A DNA stretch of 64,000 bases from a plasmid, in sequence record NZ_CP102839.1; one strand, 5' to 3'. Below, piece by piece: positions 3,846 through 20,215 of this stretch. How positions within the stretch are numbered: position 1 is the first letter of the stretch; every line of letters begins with the position of its first letter. The translations under genes and the position numbers were made by a program. The notes below the pieces were generated by a model that saw only the letters and a list, made by a program, of their open reading frames with translations, did not search any database and had not been told where the DNA came from.

Positions 3846-4055
3846 CTACCGTGGTGCATAACCCTCTTCCGCCAGTGCTTTCATGAGCTGATTGATACCA
3901 TCCATCATCAGGTATGCCTCAATATCAGACGTTGCCAGCCGGCGGCAGTCACTGAATCCCTGCCGCTTGACCAGCTGTGCGAGCGCCTGTGCTTCCCTGT
4001 GCGTCAGCTGCAGATTCACCTCAACGGGTTTTTCATGGCGTATTTCATCATTCAT
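3846..4055 (-). CDS. hypothetical 69-aa protein, downstream partner of the RHH-HTH fusion gene
   Basis: Overlaps the upstream gene stop by 8 nt, which suggests translational coupling. Charged helical protein. Confidence 0.4.
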   Translation of the reverse strand: MNDEIRHEKPVEVNLQLTHREAQALAQLVKRQGFSDCRRLATSDIEAYLMMDGINQLMKALAEEGYAPR

Positions 4056-5106
4056 CGTCAGACTCCTGTTCTGTCGTACCGGTGTGGGTGGCGAGCCTGT
4101 AACGGGAACGTTGTTCGTCCATCCCGAAAGAGTAGCGCGTCAGCATCTCCAGGTCGTCCTTATCCATCAGACGTTGCTTCTCCTTCAGGTGCGCCATGAC
4201 CCTATTGATAATCTCCCGATCGTCCGGCCAGAAATACCCGCCGTTGCGTTCCGGATTGCGCTTACCCAGCATTTCTTCGTGCCAGATATCCTCCCACCAG
4301 ATGTTTTCCCGGCCGCAGCGTTTTGTGATCAGCAGCGGGTGACAGTCGTTCTCTTCAAATTCATACTTCAGCCGTCCCCGGGCGATATCGTAACTTTTCA
4401 CGAACACATCGTTAATGGTATAGAAAATATACAGCTGCTCGAGCATGGCGAAAAAATCGCACAGATCGTGAAAACCGGTATTGCCGACGTGTTCGCTCAG
4501 GTGGAGGTTAGTCCAGAAGATCTCCGCCTGCAGGCTGTTGCGGAACTCACGCAGGATGAGAATACTCCCCTCCGGGGAGTCTTCGCGGATGAGGCTGATC
4601 TTATAGACCGGATTGCCGGCGGCGTCTGGCGTCAGCAGGGCGCGCGCATCGTCATACGCGCTGCCGTGGCCGTTAAGGCGTCGCTGCGAACCGAACGCGA
4701 ACGGGCGTCCCTCGCCGAATTTCAGCCAGCGTGCGGAACAGCCCAGGTAAGTGGCCAGACGGTCGGCCTGCTCAAAATCCGGGACGTCGTGGCCGGAAAA
4801 CCAGTTCATCACCGCCAGTGGGTTGGCCTCACCGAGGCGCTCCGCCAGGGCGGCCGCGTCCATCGGCGGCTGGTAATTGGGGCCGGGGCGGGAGGCCGCT
4901 TCGTTGACCAGGGGTAACAGGTGCCTGAGGCGGGCGCTCAGCTCCCGGCGGTAACGATCGGCGCCGGTAAGAGCTGCTTCACGCTGCACGGACTGTGCGA
5001 TCACAAAACGGGCGTGCGCCTCGGTGCTGCGCTCCTGGCGGGCGGCTTCCTGCTCAAACTGCCTGTAGATTTCATCTGGGATGTTGCGGACGTTCAGACG
5101 CTGCAT
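4048..5106 (-). CDS. fusion protein: FitA/Arc-like ribbon-helix-helix N-terminus + XRE-like HTH + unknown 220-aa C-terminal domain
   Basis: N-terminus MQRLNVRNIPDEIYRQFEQEAARQERSTEAHARFVI resembles the FitA/VapB-type RHH antitoxin fold. The middle region ...LAVMNWFSGHDVPDFEQADRLATYLGCSARWLKFGEG looks like an HTH. The antisense 341-aa ORF 3892-4917 is R/V-rich noise. Confidence 0.55.
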   Translation of the reverse strand: MQRLNVRNIPDEIYRQFEQEAARQERSTEAHARFVIAQSVQREAALTGADRYRRELSARLRHLLPLVNEAASRPGPNYQPPMDAAALAERLGEANPLAVMNWFSGHDVPDFEQADRLATYLGCSARWLKFGEGRPFAFGSQRRLNGHGSAYDDARALLTPDAAGNPVYKISLIREDSPEGSILILREFRNSLQAEIFWTNLHLSEHVGNTGFHDLCDFFAMLEQLYIFYTINDVFVKSYDIARGRLKYEFEENDCHPLLITKRCGRENIWWEDIWHEEMLGKRNPERNGGYFWPDDREIINRVMAHLKEKQRLMDKDDLEMLTRYSFGMDEQRSRYRLATHTGTTEQESDDE

Positions 5107-5890
5107 GGCGTTCTCCTGGCTGACTGATTTTCAGTCACTATGCCTGTCAGAATGCAATGAGTCAATATGTGATCGTTTGGTGTTTTTTGGTGTCTTCATA
5201 TGGTGATCATTTTGATGTCATCTTTATCAGGGAGTGTCGTTTTGCGGTCCGTTGCGGTTTAGCGGTATTCTCCGCAGCGCCGCCACTTATCCACCGTTTC
5301 TGTGGATAACGCTATATGTAGTGGCTCCGTCAGCTGAGAACGGCACAAGATATGGTGTCCGCGCCGGCAGCCGCGCGGCCGCTCCCCTGCCTTCCTTCCC
5401 CTGTTGATTTCGCTTTTCACGGTATTTACGTTTTTTCCGCAATTGTGGCACCGGCCAAAAGGTATTTTCCGGTGGTTGCGGGCGTAAAAGTCACAGGGTG
5501 AAAAAATAAGGGGGCAAATTATCAGCCGGCCTGATGTGTGAAGCCCGGCAGGGTTATACAGGGCAGGTGAAAAGGGACAGGGAGAAGCATCATGAAGACG
5601 CCAGGCATGCTGTTTGTGCTGCAGCTGTGCGCCGGGTTCCTGACGGGCCGTGATATCAGACAGGAAGTGCGCGTGAAAAAGACGACGAGTCCATTTTGCC
5701 CTTCAGTGCCTGTTTAACCGCCTCAAATGCTTCCTGATGTTTGATATCCATCGCGTCTCCTGTTGTGTTTACGGCGGATTTAGTGTTTTAATATGCATTA
5801 AAATGTTCAAATATGAACATTTTCAGACTGTAAACACAGGCGGAATATAACAAACTAATCCACCCGTACAGAGCATGGGAGTGCGGCGAA

Positions 5891-6139
5891 TTGACCGGAT
5901 TTGACTTGATCCTTTGGCGACGGGGCCTGAACTGGACCCAGGAACGCGCCGCGGCAGAGCTCGGCATCAGCCGTACCAGCCTGGTAAAATATGAGGACGG
6001 TGAGGCTGTGCCCCGGACGATACAACTTGCCACCGCTGCACTCACGCTGAAAGCGGAATGGCCAACAATGAAGACCATGAGCAAAGACAGGCTGCTGCGG
6101 CAGCTGAAGAACGAAGTGCTGAGGCTCAGTAATGAATGA
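5891..6139 (+). CDS. XRE-family HTH transcriptional regulator
   Basis: ...LNWTQERAAAELGISRTSLVKYEDGEAVP is a classic HTH_XRE. Confidence 0.55.
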   Translation: MTGFDLILWRRGLNWTQERAAAELGISRTSLVKYEDGEAVPRTIQLATAALTLKAEWPTMKTMSKDRLLRQLKNEVLRLSNE

Positions 6140-6223
6140 GTCCATCCCTGTTATCGGCTCTTTTATCCCGTATCCGGGATCCCGGCTGCCGGCAGAAATG
6201 GTTCATCCTCAACAGGAGATTAT

Positions 6224-6709
6224 ATGAAACTAAAAGGATACGTCACCGCTCTGCCGGTGCTGCTGCTGACAGGGTGCGCTGTGCTACCCGGACAACCCAC
6301 CGATTATGGGCGCTTCTGTAACGTATCAGGCATCGCCAGCCACGGTGAAACCTACCGTGTCAGTGACAGCCAGGATTTCTGGTTAACCCCGAACGGCCGC
6401 TATCTCAGCCAGGCTGAGTACAGCAGCCCGGCAGATACGCTTCAGAAACTGACGGGTGTGGTCAGTGGTGAAGATCCTGACCAGGCGCGGAAGAAGGCTG
6501 TCAGGGTACGGGTGTTCCGAGTCGAAAGTGAGAGCGCGAGTAAAGGTGCGTGCCTGCCCGTGCGTTATGACGACAACAACGCACGGCGGAAAATGGATTC
6601 GCTGACTAACGGCCGGCGTATGAAGGTGTACAGTGAAGATGCTGGTCAGTCCGGCCAGCAGATTTACGATAACAGTCGCGGTGCCGGCTTCAGTTACAGG
6701 TTACTATGA
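6224..6709 (+). CDS. putative lipoprotein
   Basis: MKLKGYVTALPVLLLTGCAV gives a signal peptide plus lipobox. Confidence 0.5.
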   Translation: MKLKGYVTALPVLLLTGCAVLPGQPTDYGRFCNVSGIASHGETYRVSDSQDFWLTPNGRYLSQAEYSSPADTLQKLTGVVSGEDPDQARKKAVRVRVFRVESESASKGACLPVRYDDNNARRKMDSLTNGRRMKVYSEDAGQSGQQIYDNSRGAGFSYRLL

Positions 6710-6775
6710 GCCGGTTTCGGCAAAAAACACTTTAAAATTCAGCCTCCTGCCGGCTGATTACCGGATTTTAAAAAA

Positions 6776-7516
6776 TTGAACACTTTTCCCCTGCAAATTC
6801 CTCAGAATTCACGTAGCGACGCCATCGAGACCGGGCGCGTGGCATACGTCTACTTCGATTATGCCGATGCACTGGCGCTGCGGGAGATGGCCAGCCAGGC
6901 TGATTTACCCAAATACCTGCTGGCCCCGGAGGTGTCGTTATTTCTGCGATATGTGCCTGACCTGCGCCAGCAGGTCCTTTTCGACACCCTCTGGAACACG
7001 GGCGCACGCATTAATGAGGCGCTGGCGCTGACCGGCGCCAGCTTTCAGCTTGACGGTTCCCGGCCGTTTGTCCGGCTGAAGACGCTTAAACAGCGTCAGC
7101 GCGGGCGTGGGAGACCCGGGAAGGATGAGGCGGTGTTCCGTATTGTTCCTCTGACCGATCCTCAATATGTCAGAAAGGTGCGTGAGTTTCTGACCACCCT
7201 GCGTATTGGCAAACAGCAGCTGCTCTGGCCGGTGCAGAGTGATAACACGCCGCGTAACTGGATCAGGAAAGCGCTGGACCTCGCAAAACGTGACTCTGTC
7301 ACTTTTAGTATCCCCGTCACCTGCCACACGTTCCGGCACAGCTTCTGTATGCACCTGATCCAGCATGGGGTTCCTCTGAAAGTTGTGCAGGCCTACGCCG
7401 GGCATTCCCGGCTGGAAACCACTGAAACCTACACGCGCGTGTTTGCGCTCGATGTCGGGCGTCAGTATGGCGTCCGATTCAGCCTTCCTGACAGTCATTT
7501 AACACTTCCGGAATAA
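6776..7516 (+). CDS. tyrosine site-specific recombinase (plasmid resolvase/integrase family)
   Basis: C-terminal ...HTFRHSFCMHLIQHGVPLKVVQAYAGHSRLETTETYTRV carries the R-H-R-Y catalytic tetrad signature (HxxR...Y). The exact start is uncertain. Confidence 0.75.
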   Translation: MNTFPLQIPQNSRSDAIETGRVAYVYFDYADALALREMASQADLPKYLLAPEVSLFLRYVPDLRQQVLFDTLWNTGARINEALALTGASFQLDGSRPFVRLKTLKQRQRGRGRPGKDEAVFRIVPLTDPQYVRKVREFLTTLRIGKQQLLWPVQSDNTPRNWIRKALDLAKRDSVTFSIPVTCHTFRHSFCMHLIQHGVPLKVVQAYAGHSRLETTETYTRVFALDVGRQYGVRFSLPDSHLTLPE

Positions 7517-7519
7517 TCC

Positions 7520-7756
7520 TCATTCCATCCTTATATTTCCATATAAATCTAAATTAATCCTTAATGTTTCTTTATCAGGCCGTTTGCAGGACGGTCTGGC
7601 CCTCGTTTGTTGGTTTTTGTTCGTTATTTTTCTGTATTTTTCTACATTAGTGCGTCTTTTTGTCTTTACACGCAAACCCGGATACGTAATAATCCATTTG
7701 AATGTTGTATTTTTCCTGATGGATACGGTTTTTTTCTAAATAATGTGAGGTTTGAA
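7520..7756. promoter_or_regulatory. putative parC centromere/promoter region upstream of parM
   Basis: AT-rich non-coding region immediately upstream of parMR. I could not resolve clear iterons by eye. Confidence 0.3.
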
Positions 7757-8731
7757 ATGCGTATTTTTGTTGACGACGGTTCCACCAATATCAAACTGGC
7801 ATGGGTGGCAGACGGTGAAGTGAAAACGTTGATCAGTCCGAACAGCTTTAAACCAGAATGGTCCATGACGCTGCTGACTGATTCAACGGGGCCGGCTTCC
7901 GCCAACTATGAAATTGACGGGGAAAAGTACAGCTTTGACCAGCTGAGCCCTGATGCCGTGCGCACCACGGAAACCCGCTATCAGTACAGTGATGTGAATG
8001 TAGTCGCTATCCACCACGCGCTGATGCAGTCCGGCATTGAACCGCAACCGGTTGACATTGTTGTGACGCTGCCGCTGGGCGAGTATCTGGATGAGAACGA
8101 TCAGCCTGATATGGCCAAAATCGAGCGGAAAAAAGCGAACGTGAAACGCGCGGTGACCGTTCAGGGGCATGAGAGCTTTACCGTGCGTAAAGTCAGTGTG
8201 CTGCCAGAGTCGGTCCCTGCAGGCTTCAGTGTGCTGAAGGATCTGGACGATCTGGACTCCCTGCTGATTGTCGATATCGGTGGAACGACGCTGGATATCG
8301 CGCACGTTCGCAGCAAAATGTCCGGGTTCACCAAGACGCATTGCGATCCTAAAACCGGCGTATCCATCATCACCGAGGCCGTAAAACACGCACTGGATAC
8401 CAGCGTGAGTACCCGTACCAGTTCATATTTTGCCGACCGTCTGATCCAGGCGCGAAATGACGATAGTTTTCTTTCCCGTTATCTTCAGAACGCTGACCAG
8501 CGGGCCCAGGTAATGAAGGTGCTGCACGAGCGTGAAAAAGCCCTGACGCACCGCGTCACCGATTCAGTTGGCCGCTTTGCCGGCTTCACACACGTCATGG
8601 TTGTCGGGGGCGGCGCCAGCCTGGTCGCCAGCGCAGTGAAGCAGGCCACGGGGGTGAGTGACGATCGCTTCTTCGTCAGCGATAACCCGCAGTTCGATCT
8701 GGTATTGGGCATGGTGGCAATGAAGGGCTGA
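7757..8731 (+). CDS. parM: ParM/StbA actin-like plasmid segregation ATPase
   Basis: MRIFVDDGSTNIKLAWVADGE...NSF...YSFD..SPDAV.TT...QYSDVNVVA.HHAL...IERKKANV...DIGGTTLDI...HVMVVGGGA closely parallels R1 ParM. The ORF-track start at 7607 is an upstream in-frame extension. The true start is ATG 7757. Confidence 0.9.
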   Translation: MRIFVDDGSTNIKLAWVADGEVKTLISPNSFKPEWSMTLLTDSTGPASANYEIDGEKYSFDQLSPDAVRTTETRYQYSDVNVVAIHHALMQSGIEPQPVDIVVTLPLGEYLDENDQPDMAKIERKKANVKRAVTVQGHESFTVRKVSVLPESVPAGFSVLKDLDDLDSLLIVDIGGTTLDIAHVRSKMSGFTKTHCDPKTGVSIITEAVKHALDTSVSTRTSSYFADRLIQARNDDSFLSRYLQNADQRAQVMKVLHEREKALTHRVTDSVGRFAGFTHVMVVGGGASLVASAVKQATGVSDDRFFVSDNPQFDLVLGMVAMKG

Positions 8732-8733
8732 GT

Positions 8734-9177
8734 ATGACTGATAACCGTAAGTGCTCGTTTTATATCTATCCGGATCGCAATGCGGCGGACCGGGTAGCCG
8801 ACGGATTTCTTGAGAAACTGCCTCAGAAAGAGCGCGGCCGCGCGATGCGCGCCATGATGCTCTGTGGTGCCGCGCTGATGAAACAGGACGAACGCCTGCC
8901 GTTCCTGATCGCTGAATTTCTGACGGAAGGCACCTCGATGCAGGATATTCAGCGGATCATCAGCAGTACGCTGCCGCAGCAGGATACAGGAGAGATGGCG
9001 CGTCTGTTTGAGGCGTTTCTGCAGGCCACCGGCGGCGCCAGTAATACGTTACCGCCGACAGGCGGATCAAGGCCGGAAAACAGCCCTGCCGTGACTCCCG
9101 AACCGGCGGCACCGGAGGATAAGAATCTGGAAGAAACCCGTAAGAACGTCCAGCATCTGTTCCCGGATGATGACTAA
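8734..9177 (+). CDS. parR: ParR/StbB centromere-binding adaptor
   Basis: Immediately follows parM. ...PQKERGRAMRAMMLCGAALMKQDERLPFLIAEFLTEGTSMQDIQRIISS parallels R1 ParR. Confidence 0.75.
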   Translation: MTDNRKCSFYIYPDRNAADRVADGFLEKLPQKERGRAMRAMMLCGAALMKQDERLPFLIAEFLTEGTSMQDIQRIISSTLPQQDTGEMARLFEAFLQATGGASNTLPPTGGSRPENSPAVTPEPAAPEDKNLEETRKNVQHLFPDDD

Positions 9178-9281: not shown

Positions 9282-9357
9282 TTGATTATATGGCTCATTC
9301 GCCGTATTGTTAAGGCTCATTTTTCGGTAGCGCCCCGCCTGGCGAAGGAGTAAAACC
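9282..9357 (+). promoter_or_regulatory. leading-region promoter/leader cassette, degenerate copy 1
   Basis: TTGATT at 9282, then ggctcatt core, then gGTAGCGCCCCGcCTGGCGaAGGAG block ending 6 nt before ATG 9358. Confidence 0.5.
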
Positions 9358-10471: not shown

Positions 10472-10921
10472 ATGAAATTTTCAGCAGAAGAACTCAACAT
10501 TATCCGCCAGGCGGATGCCATTATTGCCAGCAAAATTACCACCACGGATTTTATTACCGGTGCAGACGCCGCGCGTTCCTTGCTGCGGTTTCGTCTTGCT
10601 GCAGAACCACGCGAATCATTCTGCGCGTTCTTTCTCAACAGTCAGAATGGCGTGATCGCCTTTGAAGAACTGTTTCAGGGAACTATCAACAGTGTCACCG
10701 TTCATCCGCGTATCGTCCTGCAACGCGCCCTGCATCATAATGCCGCCGCCGTGGTACTGGCGCATAACCATCCTTCCGCTTTCACTGAACCCAGTCAGGC
10801 TGACAAGCTGATCACCGAGCGTCTGGCGCAGGTGCTGGGGATGGTTGACGTCAAAGTCCTCGATCACCTGATTGTGGGCGGCTGCGATATTTTCTCTTTT
10901 GCTGAACATGGTCTGATTTGA
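10472..10921 (+). CDS. RadC-like JAB/MPN domain protein (UPF0758)
   Basis: ...AVVLAHNHPSAFTEPSQADKLIT... is the JAMM-like H-x-H-x7-S-x2-D motif of the RadC/YeeS family, which is common in plasmid leading regions. RBS GAGGGA before ATG 10472. Confidence 0.8.
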   Translation: MKFSAEELNIIRQADAIIASKITTTDFITGADAARSLLRFRLAAEPRESFCAFFLNSQNGVIAFEELFQGTINSVTVHPRIVLQRALHHNAAAVVLAHNHPSAFTEPSQADKLITERLAQVLGMVDVKVLDHLIVGGCDIFSFAEHGLI

Positions 10922-10965: not shown

Positions 10966-11232
10966 ATGGGCAATAAATATACCGTGCCACTGAACGTGGG
11001 CGCAATCCGCGAAAGCTGTTTCCGTCCCGCTGACAAATGGACCCCGCCGACGGGGGATGAACTCCGCTATTTGCTGGAAAATGTGCTCAACCTGAGTCAG
11101 GAGGGGCTTGCGCGACATGTTGGCGTTAACGGCAGAACGGTGCGCCGCTGGGTGAACGGAGAAAGCGACATCGCGTATTCCGTCTGGTGCATCCTTTGCA
11201 TCGATGCCGGCTTACCGCCGATCTGGAAATAG
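10966..11232 (+). CDS. small HTH-domain protein
   Basis: MGNKYTVPLN...LSQEGLARHVGVNGRTVRRWVNGES is an HTH. GGAGG RBS. Preceded by a GC hairpin. Confidence 0.5.
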   Translation: MGNKYTVPLNVGAIRESCFRPADKWTPPTGDELRYLLENVLNLSQEGLARHVGVNGRTVRRWVNGESDIAYSVWCILCIDAGLPPIWK

Positions 11233-11874: not shown

Positions 11875-12054
11875 ATGAGTAAAGCACTGACCCCTTCCCA
11901 GCTTAAAGCTGAACTGGACACGCAGAAAGATGCGCTGCTGAAGGCGTGCCTGTATGCCCTCAACGAAATCCCTAACCGCCGTTTAAGTGGTCCATATTCA
12001 TCCACGTATGCGCTGGCCGCGCAGGTCAGTAAACTGCTCCAGAGCTGCAAATAA
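11875..12054 (+). CDS. hypothetical 59-aa protein (below the ORF-track cutoff)
   Basis: MSKALTPSQLKAELDTQKDALLKACLYALNEIPNRRLSGPYSSTYALAAQVSKLLQSCK sits directly behind cassette copy 2. It is followed by a GC hairpin at 12063-12081. Confidence 0.45.
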   Translation: MSKALTPSQLKAELDTQKDALLKACLYALNEIPNRRLSGPYSSTYALAAQVSKLLQSCK

Positions 12055-12126: not shown

Positions 12127-12987
12127 ATGTCATCTAAAAATACTCTCCCGTCAGTCGATCTGATGTACTGCCAGCATGGCGGTGAAGTGATCCCGTCCAT
12201 TGCTATTGAGCGCATCATCTCGTTGCGGGATGAAGGTATCCGCGTCTATCTCGACGGCATAGACAAGCTGCGAAAAGCGCGCGATCTGATGCAGCAGGCC
12301 GGAGGCTGCCAGTACCTCTATGACTACGACAAAGCCGTAGAGAGCGCCATCAAATGGAGCGACACCACGCCAGATCAGGCCGAAACGGCTATTTCCCGCG
12401 TTATCGACGGAAAAATCTGGGATCGGCTGATGACGGAAACCGGTATGTATACGCTGATGAGCAACAAGCAACGTCAGGAATGGGATCGGCAGGTGGCAGG
12501 CAAAGAAATGCCGCCGATAACGCTGGATAACGTTATGAGTACGTTCCGGCACCTGAACGCAAGCAAGGCTGATACCTTCACGCAAGGGCTGATTGATATC
12601 TTTAAATCCCTGTCGTGGGATTATAAAACCAATAACCCCTGCATGTTTGGCAAGCGTATCATCATCGCGCCGTTGCTCGATGTCTGGCGCAGTGGCTGGG
12701 TGCGCTTCAGCTCAGACGGGCACACCAAAATTGACGATCTGGCGCGGCCGTTCTACGTGCTGGACGGGCGTAACGTGCCTGATTACCGCGTTTCTGACGG
12801 TGCCAGACTGGATGCCTTTTTCAGTGAAAACCAGTTCAACGGTAAGGTGTTCGAGTGTGATTACTTCAGCGTGCGATATTACAAAAAGGGCAGCGCCCAC
12901 ATTACGTTTAAACGCCCGGAGCTGGTTGAGAAGATCAATAATCTGGTTGCCAGTCACTATCCCGGAATGTTACCCCCTCGCGTGTAA
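12127..12987 (+). CDS. hypothetical 286-aa leading-region protein
   Basis: MSSKNTLPSVDLMYCQHGGEV... is fed by the leader block. It is the largest unknown ORF in the array and has no recognisable motif. The ORF-track start 12058 is an upstream extension. Confidence 0.6.
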   Translation: MSSKNTLPSVDLMYCQHGGEVIPSIAIERIISLRDEGIRVYLDGIDKLRKARDLMQQAGGCQYLYDYDKAVESAIKWSDTTPDQAETAISRVIDGKIWDRLMTETGMYTLMSNKQRQEWDRQVAGKEMPPITLDNVMSTFRHLNASKADTFTQGLIDIFKSLSWDYKTNNPCMFGKRIIIAPLLDVWRSGWVRFSSDGHTKIDDLARPFYVLDGRNVPDYRVSDGARLDAFFSENQFNGKVFECDYFSVRYYKKGSAHITFKRPELVEKINNLVASHYPGMLPPRV

Positions 12988-13848: not shown

Positions 13849-13873
13849 GCGCCCCCACGAGGGGCGTTTTTTT
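13849..13873 (+). terminator. rho-independent terminator
   Basis: gcgcccccacgaggggcg stem followed by T7. Confidence 0.6.
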
Positions 13874-13903
13874 GCTTGCGCATATGTCTCATTAGACGTA
13901 TAA
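13870..13903 (+). promoter_or_regulatory. partial cassette, promoter half only
   Basis: TTGCTTgcgcatatgtctcattagacgTATAAT. The leader half is replaced by unrelated sequence. Confidence 0.45.
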
Positions 13904-13954
13904 TGTTTTTACTGATTCAAATCAGTACCTTCCTAAATAGCCTTACAGGTGCAT

Positions 13955-14068
13955 TATGACCTCTTCTGAAATCCTCCATAACCTCCCTCAGATTATCACG
14001 GCCGTGGCCGCCCTCATTACTGCCATTACCGGGCTGATTAAAGTCATGAAGGATAAGGGTAAGGACTG
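13955..14068 (+). CDS. putative 37-aa single-helix membrane peptide
   Basis: MTSSEILHNLPQIITAVAALITAITGLIKVMKDKGKD: hydrophobic core with a basic tail. Lies behind the partial promoter copy and is followed by a GC hairpin. Confidence 0.3.
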
Positions 14069-14104
14069 AACCGCCGCAGGGGGCGACAGCCCCCTGCATC
14101 CCTA

Positions 14105-14141
14105 ACCGGCAGCGCCCCGACTGGCGCAGGAGTAAAAAAAA
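14105..14141 (+). promoter_or_regulatory. partial cassette, 3' leader block only
   Basis: ccGGcAGCGCCCCGACTGGCGCAGGAGtaaaaaaaa then GTG 14142. Confidence 0.5.
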
Positions 14142-14378
14142 GTGACAACGCTGCATATTCAAGACATTCCCACTGATGGCGCGCCGCCTGTTTGTGCAGG
14201 CCGCTCAATCTCAGATGATGACCTTTGCGCCTCATGCCAGCATCTCGACTATCGCCCTGGGCACCTCAGCGCCTGCCTGCTGTCAGGTTGCGGGCGTGAC
14301 GACTGGCCTTCAGAACTGGATGCAAACGGCTACAGCGTTGCCTGTAGCGGCTATGAGCGTGAAAAATCGCTTGATTAA
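14142..14378 (+). CDS. hypothetical Cys-rich 78-aa protein (GTG start)
   Basis: ...CAGRSISDDDLCASCQHLDY...CLLSGCG...VACSGYE has at least 7 Cys, so it is possibly metal-binding. Confidence 0.45.
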   Translation: MTTLHIQDIPTDGAPPVCAGRSISDDDLCASCQHLDYRPGHLSACLLSGCGRDDWPSELDANGYSVACSGYEREKSLD

Positions 14379-14462
14379 CATGGCTCATTAGACGTACAAT
14401 AATTACATCGAAAGGCATCCGGTCTTTCGCGGCAGCGCCCCGTCTGGCGCAGGAGTTTTACA
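14371..14462 (+). promoter_or_regulatory. leading-region promoter/leader cassette, copy 4
   Basis: TTGATT 14371, 18-nt spacer, TACAAT 14395, hairpin, GcAGCGCCCCGtCTGGCGCAGGAG, then ATG 14463. Confidence 0.65.
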
Positions 14463-14873
14463 ATGCACGGTAACGTAAATGAAATTTGCGCAAGGCTTCT
14501 CGACAGTTTTGATCCACAGCAGCGGATCAGCCTGCTGATCTGGACTGCTGAAGATGTCCATGACTGCACCAGTGATATGAACCTCACTGACGATGAGGCC
14601 GAAGCCGTTCTGGCAGAAATCGCGGAATGCAGTTCACACAGCCGTTATGGCGTCGGAAAAGATACCGTCTGGAGCCTGGCAAAGCAGGTGCGCGAAGATG
14701 CCGCCCGCGATCGAAAAATAGAGGTCAATGCCGAGGCGCTGCAAAAAGTCGTGGCGCTGGCGGCGCAGTTTATCCGGCTGGAAGAAATCCAGTCTGGTGA
14801 AGGAGCTGCACGCCGACTTTATCCGCAGGAGTCTGAGGCGCTGGAGTGCATCACGAAGGTGATTAACGGCTAA
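14463..14873 (+). CDS. hypothetical acidic 136-aa protein
   Basis: MHGNVNEICARLLDSFDPQQ... is strongly acidic (D/E-rich), which is compatible with a DNA-mimic but unproven. Confidence 0.55.
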   Translation: MHGNVNEICARLLDSFDPQQRISLLIWTAEDVHDCTSDMNLTDDEAEAVLAEIAECSSHSRYGVGKDTVWSLAKQVREDAARDRKIEVNAEALQKVVALAAQFIRLEEIQSGEGAARRLYPQESEALECITKVING

Positions 14874-14900
14874 TTCACGCAGTAACGCAGCGAACTTTCA

Positions 14901-14934
14901 CAGTAGCGCCCCGACTGGCGCAGGAGGAAAAAAC
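14901..14934 (+). promoter_or_regulatory. partial cassette, 3' leader block only
   Basis: caGTAGCGCCCCGACTGGCGCAGGAGgaaaaaac then ATG 14935. Confidence 0.5.
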
Positions 14935-15240
14935 ATGTCCCAGAATGAAGCCTATTACGACACGCTGGCCCTGATTGAAAAGGGGCAATGGTGTTTCGGC
15001 AGTATGGACGAAGAAAACGAAGAGCGGGCAATCAAGGCCGCTAAGGCGCTGGCGCTGTTTGCGCGCCTGAATGAGCAGGACTGCGACGGACACCCGGTTT
15101 CCGAAATCATCGTTGATTTTATCGCTAACCTGATGCACCTGGGGGAAGCGATAAATTTTCGTGTGCTCGATGAGGAAAGCGCGGTGATCCCGTTGGTCAG
15201 GATCGCAGCCGTACACTTTAACGCTGAAACAACGTCATAG
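14935..15240 (+). CDS. hypothetical acidic 101-aa protein
   Basis: MSQNEAYYDTLALIEKGQWCFGSMDEENEE... sits behind the leader block. Confidence 0.55.
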   Translation: MSQNEAYYDTLALIEKGQWCFGSMDEENEERAIKAAKALALFARLNEQDCDGHPVSEIIVDFIANLMHLGEAINFRVLDEESAVIPLVRIAAVHFNAETTS

Positions 15241-15307
15241 TAATCATGTGAATCAGAAGGGGGCAGGCGTGATCCTGCCCCCAAAAATGGACAGGGGAAA
15301 GAGTTCT

Positions 15308-15343
15308 CCCGCCTGAAAATATTCAGGCAGGCGGGAATATTTT
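15308..15343 (+). terminator. rho-independent terminator
   Basis: cccgcctg...caggcggg stem followed by a T-rich run, immediately before cassette copy 5. Confidence 0.55.
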
Positions 15344-15345
15344 GC

Positions 15346-15439
15346 TTGATTAATATGGCTCATTAGACGTATAATAATCACATCGAAAGGCAATGAGGCT
15401 TTTCGCGGTAGCGCCCCGACTGGCGCAGGAGTACAGAAA
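15346..15439 (+). promoter_or_regulatory. leading-region promoter/leader cassette, copy 5
   Basis: TTGATT 15346, 18-nt spacer, TATAAT 15370, hairpin, GTAGCGCCCCGACTGGCGCAGGAG, then ATG 15440. Confidence 0.7.
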
Positions 15440-15880
15440 ATGTCTACTGAACTGAATCAACCCGCCATCACTGCACGCATTATCCCCAATAACCGCCGCA
15501 TGGCCTTTCTGCCACGCCTGTTCGGCGCCTGGTATCTCACAGGTGAGGCCGGTGTCTACAACCACGCACGTTCTCTCTGCGCCGATTATCAAGGCGGTTC
15601 CTGGGAGTTCGCCGAACTGTCTTGCGGTAGCGGCTTCATGTACCCACTGAGCGCAGAGCGCTTCACGGTATCGGTTAGCGGTAACTGGTTCGAAGGGGAA
15701 CTGTCCGCAGAAGCTACCGGTATCGTGCTGACCCTGTTCACCCTGAACCACATGATCTGGCACGCACATGATGCCGGCTATGAGCACATCTGCGACATGC
15801 TGATCACCCAGCAGGAAAAGCTCAAATTATATGCCGACCAGCACGCCGAAGCCGGTTTGATTTACCGCGCGATTGACTGA
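15440..15880 (+). CDS. ArdB/KlcA-family antirestriction protein
   Basis: ...AFLPRLFG...GEAGVY...LCADYQGGSWEFAEL..GSGFMYPL...GNWFEGELSAEATGIVLTLFTLN...LIYRAID matches the conserved KlcA/ArdB pattern (FLP..FG, LC..Y.GG.W, GF.MAP, GELSA.AAGIV.TLFAL, IYRAID). Confidence 0.8.
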   Translation: MSTELNQPAITARIIPNNRRMAFLPRLFGAWYLTGEAGVYNHARSLCADYQGGSWEFAELSCGSGFMYPLSAERFTVSVSGNWFEGELSAEATGIVLTLFTLNHMIWHAHDAGYEHICDMLITQQEKLKLYADQHAEAGLIYRAID

Positions 15881-16364: not shown

Positions 16365-16598
16365 ATGGAACTCAATGATACTGCAAAATTACCTGACTCT
16401 GATGCACGGAAAATTAACGCCGTAGCGTCTCAGGCATACCCTCTTGGCCTCCTGCCTAATCTGAAAATTAACTTCTACTCTATTGACGCCATTCAACTTG
16501 AACTGCGTGACAACAGTGGTGATCTTATCTGGCGAGATTTCACGTTCTCCCGCGATTTTATCAACGGTTTTATGCCTTATATCAGACCAATAAATTAG
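16365..16598 (+). CDS. hypothetical 77-aa protein
   Basis: MELNDTAKLPDSDARKINAV... sits behind cassette copy 6. Confidence 0.5.
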   Translation: MELNDTAKLPDSDARKINAVASQAYPLGLLPNLKINFYSIDAIQLELRDNSGDLIWRDFTFSRDFINGFMPYIRPIN

Positions 16599-16651: not shown

Positions 16652-16972
16652 ATGGTATTAACCGGTATTGAAACAGTAAAGGTAGCGGTGATCTGTACAG
16701 GCCACGTCAGCCATCAAGATTCAGAGATTATCCCTGAGTTTCTCTGGAACAACTGGAAAGAATCCGGAGAGTTCTGGATAAGCAGTACTGCTCACGGTTG
16801 GTTATTTCGGTTGTGTGCTCTGCCCGATGAATGGGAGGAGCGTCTGAAAAATTTTGGAGTAAGTGATGGCTGCATATCAAATCTTAGAGTGCTGGAATGT
16901 GAAGGATATGACTGGGTTCATTTCCAGGCTGATGCACCCATCGTGGAGGAGCTTCAGCACTGGGACTGGTAA
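16652..16972 (+). CDS. hypothetical 106-aa protein
   Basis: MVLTGIETVKVAVICTGHVSHQDSEIIPEF... has a GGAGA RBS preceded by a gggagcgggggagaaactcccccgg hairpin. Confidence 0.5.
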   Translation: MVLTGIETVKVAVICTGHVSHQDSEIIPEFLWNNWKESGEFWISSTAHGWLFRLCALPDEWEERLKNFGVSDGCISNLRVLECEGYDWVHFQADAPIVEELQHWDW

Positions 16973-17972: not shown

Positions 17973-18284
17973 ATGAGTAAGAGTGAGCGACGTAACAGAA
18001 CAGCCACTCTTCCGCCGGTAAGGTGCCTTCCGGAAGAGCGGGATGAGATACGTCAAAAGGCGGAGGATGCGGGTCTCAGCATAGGTGCATTTATGCTTAG
18101 GGCTGCGTTAGGAAGGAAGATTGCTCCGCAGACAGATCACAAGCTCATTAACGAACTCTCACGTCTTGGCGGTTTACAGAAGCATCTCTTTAAAGAAGGG
18201 AACGGGGTCGGCAGTAAGGAGTACGCAGAGATACTGCAGGCCATCAAGGCAGCCATTTTCAGGATAGAGCAAAAGAACGACTAA
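17973..18284 (+). CDS. nikA: NikA-like ribbon-helix-helix relaxosome accessory protein
   Basis: MSKSERRNRTATLPPVRCLPEERDEIRQKAEDAGLSIGAFMLRAALGRKI..TDHKLINELSRLGGLQKHLF..G...GSKEYAEILQAI parallels R64 NikA (RHH core, TD...L.EL.RLG..QKHLF, KEYAE). The ORF-track start 17745 is an upstream extension. AAGGAAG RBS. Confidence 0.75.
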   Translation: MSKSERRNRTATLPPVRCLPEERDEIRQKAEDAGLSIGAFMLRAALGRKIAPQTDHKLINELSRLGGLQKHLFKEGNGVGSKEYAEILQAIKAAIFRIEQKND

Positions 18285-18286
18285 AT

Positions 18287-20215
18287 ATGAACGCCATCAT
18301 TCCACCCAAACGTCGCGACAGAAAGTCCAGCTTTGTTCAGCTGGTCGCGTATGTTTCCGTGCGTGATGATGTTCCGTTAAAAGACGAGCTGAAAGAAGAC
18401 GAGCGTTTCCAGCGTCCGTCGCGTTCCCGCCAGGCCATTTTTGATCGCCTTGTTGACTACATGAACCGTAGTGAAGGAACGATCATTGAACAGATTTCTG
18501 ATATGACTCCTGAAGGTGATATACGCTGTTCTGTTGACGGTGTTATCTGCCAGCATAACCTGATGTCAGTTGAAACAGCTGCAATGGAGATGAACAGCAT
18601 TGCCATGCAGAACACGCATGTTAAGGACGCGGTTTATCACTATATCCTGAGCTGGCAGGAAGATGAAAATCCATCTGACGATCAGGTTTTTGACAGTGTT
18701 AAACACTCACTCAAACGCCTGGGTATGGAAGAGCACCAGTACGTAGCGGCGATTCACCGTGACACGGATAATCTGCATGTTCATATTGCTGCTAACCGCG
18801 TTCACCCGGTTTCTTATCGCGCGGCTAATGTCTGGAATGACGCGGATAAACTTCAGCGTACCTGCCGGGAACTGGAACTGAAGCACGGATTTAAAGTGGA
18901 TAACGGAAGCTGGGTTCGTGATGCTGACAACAACATTGTGCGGGCCAGAAAAGGGTATCGCAATGCACCACGTTCAGCGCGACAGCTTGAACACTTCTCT
19001 GATAAAGAGTCCCTTCATCATTTTGCAGTCCAGCATGTTCGTAAGCCTGTTAATGCCATGTTCCGTGAGAAGAACGCGTCATGGGAAAAACTGCATCAGG
19101 TCATGAATGATGCTGGTTTAATGTTAGAGACTTCCGGCAAAGGGCTGATCGTGCGTGATGTGTGTGGCGACGAGAAACTGGCCGTTAAATCATCGCGGGT
19201 TCACCCTGGTATGACGCTTTCCCGTCTTGAGCCTGCGCTGGGAACCTTTGTTCCCTCACCACGTTCTGCGGAAATGGTTAAGCAAAGTGTTCAGACGTCT
19301 TACAGTGACAAACTGCATGTCCGCGATCGTGGTGCCCGTGCGGAGCGCCGGCAGGCACGCGCTGACGCCCGTATCGATTTGCGCGAACGCTACGAGAAGT
19401 ACCGCAACGCCTGGAAAAAACCTGACCTTCATGCCGCTGAACGATTCCGGGCTGTGTCCGCTGCATTTAAAGAACAGAAGACCCATATCCGGGATAACGA
19501 GAAAGACGCGCATATGCGTAAGCTCATGTACCACATCGTGGAGTTTGAACGTGAGAAGTCGATGGCAGCGCTGCGTATTGCACTGAAGGCAGAACGCCAG
19601 AAGTTGTATGACGAGGGCATGATGCGGCCGCTGACCTACCGTGCCTGGACCGAACAACAGGCGCTTCACGGCGATCAGGCTGCGCTCAGTCAGTTGCGTG
19701 GCTGGTCTTACCGACAGAATCGTAAAAACCGGACACCGCAGGCCTCTGACAATATTATTTACTGTGCACCTGCAGATGACACCTCGTTGCTCAAAGCAGA
19801 TGGTTACGAGGCCCGCCTGCATCGTGACGGCGCGGTTGTCTATTCCCGCCAGGGGCAGGATGCCATCATTGATCGGGGAGACCGCGTTGAAGTCATTAAT
19901 CCGTATGATGACGGTGACCTCAACACGCGCATTGCCGTTGACATGGTGGCCTGGAAATCAGGCGAGCGTGTCGAATTCAGCCGGGATGGCAGTTTCGCTT
20001 ATGCTGCCGGCGATGCGGTGGCTGCACACAACCTGCATCATCGTGACAGTATCATCGTGCCGAGTGACCGGGAACAATACGACTATACGCGGGAGAAGTT
20101 TAACCAGCTGAAAGGCCGGTATACGGACAGTGAACGGGAAGCACTTCGTCAGCAATATGACGATCGTTATTACGACGATGTTCGCCACAATGACGACAGT
20201 AGTTATAAGCCATAA
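18287..20215 (+). CDS. nikB: MOBP-family relaxase (NikB-like)
   Basis: ...AIHRDTDNLHVHIAANRVHP... is the 3-His HxDxDNxHxH relaxase motif. It sits directly after nikA. 642 aa, shorter than R64 NikB at roughly 900 aa. Confidence 0.8.
   Translation: MNAIIPPKRRDRKSSFVQLVAYVSVRDDVPLKDELKEDERFQRPSRSRQAIFDRLVDYMNRSEGTIIEQISDMTPEGDIRCSVDGVICQHNLMSVETAAMEMNSIAMQNTHVKDAVYHYILSWQEDENPSDDQVFDSVKHSLKRLGMEEHQYVAAIHRDTDNLHVHIAANRVHPVSYRAANVWNDADKLQRTCRELELKHGFKVDNGSWVRDADNNIVRARKGYRNAPRSARQLEHFSDKESLHHFAVQHVRKPVNAMFREKNASWEKLHQVMNDAGLMLETSGKGLIVRDVCGDEKLAVKSSRVHPGMTLSRLEPALGTFVPSPRSAEMVKQSVQTSYSDKLHVRDRGARAERRQARADARIDLRERYEKYRNAWKKPDLHAAERFRAVSAAFKEQKTHIRDNEKDAHMRKLMYHIVEFEREKSMAALRIALKAERQKLYDEGMMRPLTYRAWTEQQALHGDQAALSQLRGWSYRQNRKNRTPQASDNIIYCAPADDTSLLKADGYEARLHRDGAVVYSRQGQDAIIDRGDRVEVINPYDDGDLNTRIAVDMVAWKSGERVEFSRDGSFAYAAGDAVAAHNLHHRDSIIVPSDREQYDYTREKFNQLKGRYTDSEREALRQQYDDRYYDDVRHNDDSSYKP

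Follow-up and report, generated by a model that had tools for sequence, protein, structure and literature searches.

The small acidic genes orf28-orf30 and a repeated CUP-like cassette in the klcA-centred leading region of an IncL/M-type conjugative plasmid

A stretch of 64,000 nucleotides from the plasmid record NZ_CP102839.1, here called the window, contains three small open reading frames (ORFs) that encode a Cys-rich protein of 78 aa (14142-14378), an acidic protein of 136 aa (14463-14873) and an acidic protein of 101 aa (14935-15240). In the nomenclature of pOXA-48 they are orf28, orf29 (DUF1380) and orf30. With a probability of roughly 0.6, these are co-regulated leading-region genes under a promoter/leader cassette resembling the CUP elements of IncN plasmids, in an anti-restriction neighbourhood centred on klcA; their products would be early small acidic proteins that aid establishment or anti-defence, with the Cys4 module of the 78-aa protein acting in the KlcA pathway. 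By its gene order, the klcA-centred neighbourhood appears to be conserved well outside this plasmid.

The anti-restriction character of this neighbourhood derives from the next operon, which is led by a gene of the KlcA/ArdB family (PF03230, E = 2.4e-24; 15440-15880, + strand), whose product is 31% identical to ArdB of R46 and which is the functional anchor of the region. The operons are a 37-aa ORF with the Cys ORF, the DUF1380 gene with orf30 and, directly after the second, klcA with orf31. An earlier note, made from the sequence alone, had placed the three ORFs correctly; all are on the + strand. In the RefSeq copies of the same plasmid they are annotated as hypothetical, DUF1380 family and hypothetical, and comparison with an IncL/M relative gives pairwise pN/pS values of 0.31 for the Cys ORF, 0.13 for the DUF1380 gene and 0.57, with few changes, for the 101-aa ORF. 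This annotation, the ratios of 0.13-0.57 and an ATG in a relative argue that all three are real genes, and they are conserved or under purifying selection. The ATG is found in the IncL/M relative p24A17019_A_KPC, at the position homologous to the GTG with which the Cys ORF begins; since the Cys ORF also has no in-frame ATG, and its GTG lies 9 nt after GGAG in the register of the ATG of eight sister genes, the GTG start proposed earlier is credible.

The three ORFs belong to the leading region, which is the first part of the plasmid to reach a new cell. They are located ~3 kb from oriT/nikA and upstream of oriT/nikA-nikB, with nikA (mobA; 17973-18284) downstream of them and the relaxase gene (nikB; 18287-20215) downstream of nikA. 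Furthermore, between ~9.3 and 17 kb every gene is on the + strand and oriented toward oriT, a direction typical of leading regions, and this bears out the location that the note had suggested. The order in pOXA-48 is rmoA(Hha)-orf27.1-orf28-orf29(DUF1380)-orf30-klcA-orf31-orf32-ssb (Baffert et al.). In pOXA-48, pCTX-M3, pNDM-HK and pEL60 the same genes from rmoA(Hha) through orf27.1, orf28, orf29 and orf30 to klcA stand in the same order as in the window, where the Hha-family gene (rmoA) is directly upstream of the module, and the protein identity to the window is 91-100% among the plasmids listed. Plasmid pL22-4 of Klebsiella quasipneumoniae is 100% identical over 1.7 kb around the three ORFs, and the matches in PLSDB amount to 1071 plasmids (1047 typed conjugative), mostly of Klebsiella, Enterobacter and Escherichia. 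The backbone combines a MOBP relaxase with an MPF_I (IncI-like) transfer system including traH-traY, excA, trbC and nuc. The window is of IncL/M type because the 101-aa ORF is confined to IncL/M-type plasmids; relative to pOXA-48/IncL-M it is a sister lineage, with a replicon called IncFII-like by MOB-suite and 95-99% DNA identity to most IncL/M records. Genes orf28-30 and the leader RNA described below had already been catalogued; what appears to be new is the synteny of the Cys family with klcA-type genes and the relationship to CUP elements, neither of which was found in the literature searched.

A repeated cassette links these operons. Its 21-nt core, GCGCCCCGACTGGCGCAGGAG, has 8 copies in the window at no more than 3 mismatches (0.01 expected), all of them on the + strand directly before a start codon, and a ninth, more diverged leader copy precedes the gene at 16365. 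A second motif, ATGGCTCATTAGACGTATAAT, with 6 copies in the window against 0 expected, corresponds to the spacer and -10 box of a TTGATT-18-TATAAT promoter. The full layout consists of the promoter, a ATCGAAAGGC..GCTTTTCG hairpin, a GCGCC-N6-GGCGC hairpin, AGGAG, an A-rich spacer and the start codon, and is found before ccgA1, orf27, DUF1380, klcA and the gene at 16365. The 37-aa ORF at 13956 has the promoter alone, and only the 3' part, hairpin 2 with the Shine-Dalgarno sequence (SD), stands before the Cys ORF, orf30 and DUF4942. In total, 6-7 promoter copies and 8-9 leader copies were counted between 9278 and 16368, all on the + strand, and every copy lies in fixed register, 7-9 nt before the start codon of a conserved ORF. 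The promoter copies near 9290, 11789, 13092, 13884, 14380, 15355 and 16280 have an invariant -35/-10 spacer, ATGGCTCATTAGACG, and seven promoters with an invariant spacer suggest a common operator.

The DUF1380 gene has the full promoter and 5' untranslated region (5'UTR) at 14366-14462 on the + strand, with a -35 box TTGATT at 14371-14376, a -10 box TACAAT at 14395-14400, a predicted transcription start site (TSS) at A14407, both hairpins and the SD. The TTGATT of this promoter (14371-14378 region) overlaps the last codons and stop of the Cys ORF, so that the insertion point of the cassette sets the C-terminus of the Cys protein. The cassette of the klcA operon (15341-15439, +) carries TTGATT-18-TATAAT. 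The short leader of the Cys ORF (14101-14141, +; repeat families D2-D4) is made of a GCGCC-CCGACT-GGCGC hairpin, an AGGAG Shine-Dalgarno and an A-rich spacer; it holds the core motif with 0 mismatches at 14112-14132, and its SD is unpaired in the RNA fold. The short leader of the 101-aa ORF lies at 14895-14934 (+). Thus the suggestion that the DUF1380 and 101-aa genes each have a leader block of their own stands for the former, which has the complete cassette, while the latter, like the Cys ORF, has only the 3' part.

The transcription of such leaders is documented by RNAs sequenced from the IncM plasmid pNDM-HK. NDM-sR5a-d are RNAs of 53-55 nt that extend from AUCGAAAGGC to GGAGUAA, one copy being directly before klcA (Kong et al. 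2018, PMC5880898). Over the stretch from ATCGAAAGG to GGAGTAA, NDM-sR5c is identical to a window cassette 5'UTR, with a few base differences in the other three copies, and the klcA cassette RNA matches NDM-sR5 nearly base for base. The 5' ends of these RNAs place the TSS at the A located 7 nt after the -10 box, and the fact that they were sequenced indicates that the cassette promoters are active in pNDM-HK. The leader was found through the RNA sequences of that paper; searching the literature for the leader DNA strings returned nothing, and a Rfam scan of 9-19 kb at E <= 1 gave no match, so the leader does not belong to any curated RNA family. The same cassette (96% identity over 97 nt) was also seen 3-4 times in large non-IncL/M Klebsiella plasmids of 233-263 kb, under no annotated gene, and it may travel between plasmid backbones.

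An arrangement of the same kind is reported for IncN plasmids. In pKM101/R46, the CUP (conserved upstream) elements and the regulon that they control are said to have been described by Belogurov et al. in 1993 and by Delver and Belogurov in 1997. As in the window, the ard and ccg genes of the leading region are preceded by copies of one element that contains a promoter and a conserved 5'UTR, and genes lacking a promoter of their own (ccgC in R46, the Cys ORF and orf30 in the window) have a truncated 3' part of it. Between the -10 box and the ATG, the window leaders can be aligned with the sequences upstream of ccgAI, ardA, ccgC, ccgD and ardB of R46, and 25 of 85 columns are invariant. In hairpin 1, A-U to G-C double changes occur at two to three pairs and 95% of cells are paired, against 34-52% in slid controls, which is essentially one evolutionary comparison. 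The promoter half of the cassette had no blastn similarity to R46. A 59-aa ORF at 11875-12054 (+), heading the genes behind one cassette, encodes a CcgAI homologue (56% identity over 45 aligned residues) and ties the IncL/M and IncN leading regions together. As judged from these alignments, the cassette is the IncL/M counterpart and a relative of the IncN CUP elements; no such link was found in the literature searched. The cargo differs: ArdB and CcgAI of R46 have homologues in the window and the ArdA gene does not, whereas the R46 leading region has no homologues of the Cys protein, the DUF1380 protein or orf30.

Kong et al. read NDM-sR5a-d as stand-alone small RNAs of the stability region, whereas the window copies are 5' leaders of conserved ORFs. 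If the leader were the functional unit and the ORFs secondary, the 53-55-nt RNA could be a trans-acting small RNA or a protein sponge. Such a role would agree with the discreteness of the RNAs, which end just past the SD and have four copies in pNDM-HK, with a sequence conservation far above chance, and with the preservation of hairpin 1 by compensatory change between IncN and IncL/M. However, all copies keep their fixed register before the start of a conserved ORF, and the short form also occurs before internal promoterless cistrons, which fits a cassette for translation initiation or a 5'UTR. RNA folding leaves the SD unpaired after two small hairpins, yet with energies no better than those of shuffles (z = -1.0 to +0.5), and the ORFs are themselves under purifying selection. 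An antisense regulator elsewhere on the plasmid was considered and rejected, the window having no complementary copy of the leader on its minus strand at <= 3 mismatches. A primary function of the leader RNA is therefore very improbable.

The Cys-rich protein (14142-14378, +; GTG start) contains the domain SISDDDLCxxC..YRPG..S.C..WP..D.NGY..C. It had been described as a 7-Cys protein, but the count is six (C18, C29, C32, C45, C50 and C68), with 3 His. C29, C32, C45 and C68 are kept in 99-100% of 145 sequences (144 relatives and the query), as are the DDD triad and S43 of the SxC motif, and G40 is kept in 98%; C18 and C50 are not conserved among the relatives. The protein thus shows the four-ligand CxxC...C...C pattern of a Cys4 zinc module, and is probably a zinc-binding module of ~50 residues. 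The zinc binding that the note had raised as possible is plausible in light of the four invariant Cys in about 145 relatives.

Close relatives are confined to IncL/M-type plasmids. A profile built from ten relatives and run against 1.84 billion proteins found 333 cluster representatives at E <= 1e-3 and 133 at E <= 1e-10, with a common part of ~50 residues, SISDDDLCxxCxxCxYxPGxxSxC...WPG..DxDGY...C. Among 61 members scanned, none matched a Pfam, NCBIfam or PHROG model over the Cys domain; the family profile gave chance-level matches only in a PDB sequence search, and the SISDDD/ISDDDLC motif left no trace in the literature searched. These profile matches indicate that the protein defines a large, unannotated family. 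The domain is occasionally fused to DUF6876, DUF3846 or other unannotated domains. Two metagenomic relatives lie on contigs of many short unannotated genes, with a PAPS-reductase gene in one and a sigma-factor gene in the other, and these contigs look phage-like.

The position of the family members points to the KlcA pathway. In a synteny scan of one genome per species, with 43 Cys-family loci, a KlcA/ArdB homologue was the next gene in 28, starting 200-630 nt downstream of the Cys gene start. The order is fixed as DUF932 - Cys - KlcA - RadC/JAB - DUF987 - CbeA - CbtA - DUF5983 - DUF4942; an annotated example is E. coli O121, in which the Cys ORF is called hypothetical. Of 5426 complete E. coli genomes, 2592 contain the species' version of the gene, with 1-7 copies per genome and often without annotation. 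In integrative elements of Enterobacterales, the Cys family is hence the usual upstream neighbour of genes of the KlcA/ArdB family, to which YfjX/LfgA and YafX of E. coli belong. Such a conserved neighbour would most likely act in the same pathway as KlcA, and this is the most likely role of the Cys protein. A bolder proposal makes the SISDDDLC Cys4 mini-protein the founding member of an unrecognised, widespread mobile-element family in Proteobacteria and a dedicated partner of KlcA/ArdB (cofactor, specificity subunit or regulator), with DUF1380 and orf30-like modules as further interchangeable parts; in this complete form it is quite unlikely.

In the E. coli O121 chromosome, the DUF932 gene and the klcA-type gene of a CP4-like island flank the Cys-domain ORF (3980-4180 of the locus examined), which stops after ..DRNG with the fourth Cys lost; in CP4-like islands of E. 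coli it is often unannotated or truncated. In CP4-57 of E. coli K-12 (7920-8869 of that locus), lfgA and lfgB are the current names of the klcA-type yfjX and the RadC-like yfjY, and ypjI, a candidate for the Cys ORF of K-12, was rejected upon inspection. LfgB is reported to be a protease that cleaves the antitoxin MqsA (PMC10846083), so genes of the module may have roles beyond restriction. The window leading region itself carries JAB/RadC (10472-10921), DUF4942 (12127-12987), KlcA (15440-15880) and DUF5983 (16652-16972) genes. These are common to the plasmid and to the CbtA/CbeA islands of E. coli, which resemble cryptic prophages, and suggest a common ancestral module; on homology, much of the gene content of the plasmid module and the chromosomal islands is in common.

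The 136-aa protein, orf29, matches Pfam PF07128 over residues 1-104 slightly below threshold (E = 9.1e-5; 23 bits against a cut-off of 26 bits) and phrog_9024 with E = 5e-6. By tblastn, its residues 1-136 are ~29% identical to DUF1380-annotated genes of IncI/IncF plasmids, and 40% in Kosakonia. These matches identify it as a divergent member of the DUF1380 family. A DUF1380 homologue was found by tblastn in 4332 plasmids, 3545 of them conjugative. The family also adjoins klcA in an IncI-type plasmid: in the IncI-gamma plasmid pSD107, one DUF1380 gene comes directly after a klcA-type gene, and a second lies in an orphan-methylase cluster of the leading region with ssb, psiB and ardA. In newly formed transconjugants of IncI1 pESBL and F, the klcA and methylase operons belong to those with strong induction (PMC12672017). 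A survey of the DUF1380 literature found nothing bearing on function.

The 101-aa protein, orf30, is predicted to be all-helical and has a narrower range. It was found in 978 plasmid records, all with at least 80% identity and all of IncL/M type, the 63.6-kb pOXA-48 among them; a word-indexed search gave no relatives below 76% identity, and tblastn against phages gave no match. Residues 22-75 match phrog_3963 (E = 2e-5), and so does part of P0177, whose C-terminus is a Cys domain (E = 2.3e-5). In Dryocola clanedunensis, the families are arranged differently in another element: at 5327-8179 of the locus examined, an orf30-like ORF is followed by a Cys-domain ORF, a methylase gene, a gene for a 73-aa phrog_4830 protein and a DUF1380 gene. 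The stop of that orf30-like ORF overlaps the start of the Cys-domain ORF, and its C-terminal part matches phrog_3963 at E = 2e-3, with a pairwise BLASTP E = 4e-4. These findings are suggestive of an orf30-like module that is linked, by fusion or adjacency, to the Cys domain elsewhere. After the 101-aa ORF, two GC-rich hairpins (15259-15336, +) appear in the folds of single-stranded DNA (ssDNA) and probably end the DUF1380-orf30 operon, although a terminator scan scored the first as terminator-like on the - strand only.

The acidity of these proteins had led the earlier note to propose DNA mimicry, in which carboxylate arrays on orf29, orf30 and perhaps the Cys protein would fill the DNA groove of Type I restriction enzymes or of other DNA-binding defence proteins. 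Orf29 and orf30 contain 18.4% and 17.8% D+E, with a net charge of -11 each and pI values of 4.63 and 4.42; the Cys protein, with a net charge of -8 and a pI of 4.42, is as acidic as both. All three are more acidic than every window ORF of at least 150 aa (maximum D+E 16.2%), and the acidity is kept in each family, with pI 4.4-4.8 in DUF1380 relatives, 4.3-4.5 in orf30 relatives and a median of 4.36 in 77 short Cys members. The words "strongly acidic" are correct to that extent but overstated, as a D+E content of 17-18% is well below that of ArdA. ArdA of R46 has 21.3% D+E and a net charge of -27. The charge is -0.16 per residue for ArdA and -0.08 to -0.11 for the three ORFs, or ~50-70% of its charge density, which speaks against a mimic of ArdA or Ocr grade. 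Small inhibitor proteins of mobile elements that are not DNA mimics are often moderately acidic.

Location is in favour of mimicry, as ArdA and Ocr are small acidic mobile-element proteins made early, ArdA is encoded in leading regions, and the three ORFs lie in a leading region beside klcA. Some databases even label the Cys protein an "antirestriction protein", and an "undefined" anti-restriction gene is listed on pOXA-48 by Dimitriu et al. (PMC11602122); both are names only, and no experiment was found behind the database label. The sequences of the three ORFs lack similarity to known mimics. The absence of ArdA similarity reported earlier was confirmed, with no Pfam match at E <= 0.1 and no phmmer match to R46 ArdA at E <= 1. 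Pfam includes models for both ArdA and Ocr. For Ocr (T7 gp0.3), none of the three had a Pfam or PHROG anti-restriction match; PADLOC and NCBIfam matched none of them either, and they do not match PF03230, hence are not homologous to KlcA. PDB sequence searches with orf29 and orf30 profiles gave chance-level matches only. AlphaFold2 models from shallow alignments of 4-5 sequences show four helices for orf30 (pLDDT 57.7) and a mixed alpha/beta fold for orf29 (pLDDT 57.1). Foldseek found nothing in the PDB at E <= 0.001 and no mimic in the top 50 listed, from models (pLDDT ~57) that are too poor to establish a negative; matches to stem cell factor, the Sf6 small terminase and MazG were rejected as noise (E > 0.1, TM <= 0.46). 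With a charge density well below ArdA and no mimic link in Pfam, PHROG, PADLOC or PDB sequences, the proposal was not supported, and DNA mimicry is improbable.

The proteins might alternatively serve the plasmid's own biology, as modulators of nucleoid proteins or transcription, as chaperone- or antitoxin-like partners or as factors of complementary-strand synthesis. The Hha-family RmoA gene directly upstream is consistent with this, as is the pairing of the Cys ORF in one operon with a small hydrophobic ORF that would be a candidate partner. This 37-aa ORF, MTSSEILHNLPQIITAVAALITAITGLIKVMKDKGKD (13956-14069, +), is the first gene of the operon and has one hydrophobic helix, a basic tail and its own promoter cassette; it looks like a small membrane peptide or a type I toxin-like product. 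It is absent from the RefSeq feature table, has a weak PHROG match (phrog_3399, E = 1.6e-4), and may be the "orf27.1" of pOXA-48. The cassette copy that heads the operon (13872-13906, +) comprises a TTGC.. -35 region, the spacer ATGTCTCATTAGACG and TATAAT at 13899-13904; it belongs to repeat family D6 and carries the 21-nt spacer/-10 motif with 1 mismatch. Between the 37-aa ORF and the Cys ORF lies a GC-rich hairpin, GCAGGGGGC-GACA-GCCCCCTGC (14076-14097, +), without a T-run.

Two further points agree with a role in the plasmid's own biology: the CbtA/CbeA toxin-antitoxin pair and a RadC-like protease are encoded in the same chromosomal islands as the Cys family, and the plasmid regulators korC and orf20 are essential in pOXA-48 for a reason left unexplained. 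On the other side, no maintenance or fitness effect of orf28-30 was seen by Tn-seq or CRISPRi, which argues against an antitoxin or an essential regulatory role. The strongest conserved neighbour is an anti-restriction gene and not a toxin-antitoxin pair, and acidic proteins would be unlikely to bind DNA directly. An own-biology role is accordingly unlikely.

The preferred interpretation, that orf28-30 act in establishment or anti-defence, reads the leading region as an establishment module of an IncL/M-type conjugative plasmid. Three operons would be driven by copies of one sigma-70 cassette in which an invariant promoter spacer is followed by two 5' hairpins, an exposed GGAG and an A-rich spacer. 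These strong cassettes would fire once the new cell has made the complementary strand and as long as a plasmid repressor has not yet built up, producing a burst of small acidic cytoplasmic proteins. The proteins may bind host proteins stoichiometrically and so help the incoming plasmid to establish, the products of orf28-30 most probably assisting or paralleling KlcA-type alleviation of restriction or another defence. The timing of expression, the protein-binding mode and the anti-defence role are what we infer for orf28-30. Frpo/ssi promoters of F and IncI1 likewise drive leading-region genes oriented to oriT, but a long stem-loop that rebuilds the -35/-10 boxes is theirs and is missing from the window cassette. 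A Frpo-like ssDNA promoter was thus rejected, since folds of five - strand cassettes gave only short hairpins (z = -0.3 to -4.4).

Several observations weigh against this interpretation. In Tn-seq of pOXA-48 in E. coli K-12 (Baffert et al.), orf28-30 were scored "NE" (non-essential) in both maintenance and post-conjugation libraries, with log2 fold changes of +1.26 (orf28), +0.85 (orf29) and +0.96 (orf30) at adjusted p 0.13-0.27, and they fell outside the significant genes of plasmid-wide CRISPRi screens in 13 clinical strains; in both designs there was apparently no restriction barrier facing the plasmid. On other plasmids, no restriction phenotype followed from deletion of klcA or ardB (PMC11602122), so even the role of the anchor is condition-dependent. 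CP4-57 of E. coli K-12 has a klcA-type gene but lost the Cys ORF, which means that the pairing of Cys and KlcA is not obligatory. The connection of orf30 to the Cys domain consists of weak profile matches (2e-5, 2e-3, 4e-4), and hhalign of the orf30 alignment against P0177 found nothing. Early expression of the cassette genes is argued by analogy, and a cassette lacking the long Frpo-type hairpin probably needs double-stranded DNA. Finally, the IncN repressor ArdK binds CUP sequences (PMC6289460), and no ArdK or ArdR homologue was found in the window by tblastn at E <= 0.01. The repressor could then be KorC (10966-11232) or the XRE-like Orf20, candidates proposed by inference only, and the essentiality of korC and orf20 might reflect derepression of the cassettes.

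Plasmids of the pOXA-48 type within IncL/M are the main vehicles of OXA-48 carbapenem resistance, and leading-region genes decide whether a plasmid survives its entry into a new host. The function of orf28-30 is now directly testable, with the three genes in one module with klcA, the Cys family as a habitual neighbour of klcA and a CUP-like cassette that links IncN and IncL/M. The DNA of the Cys gene is present in about half of complete E. coli genomes, often unannotated. Should the genes prove dispensable, the result would still be useful in that a plausible-sounding "DNA mimic" label would be removed from annotation. The same findings also supply rational targets against plasmid establishment.

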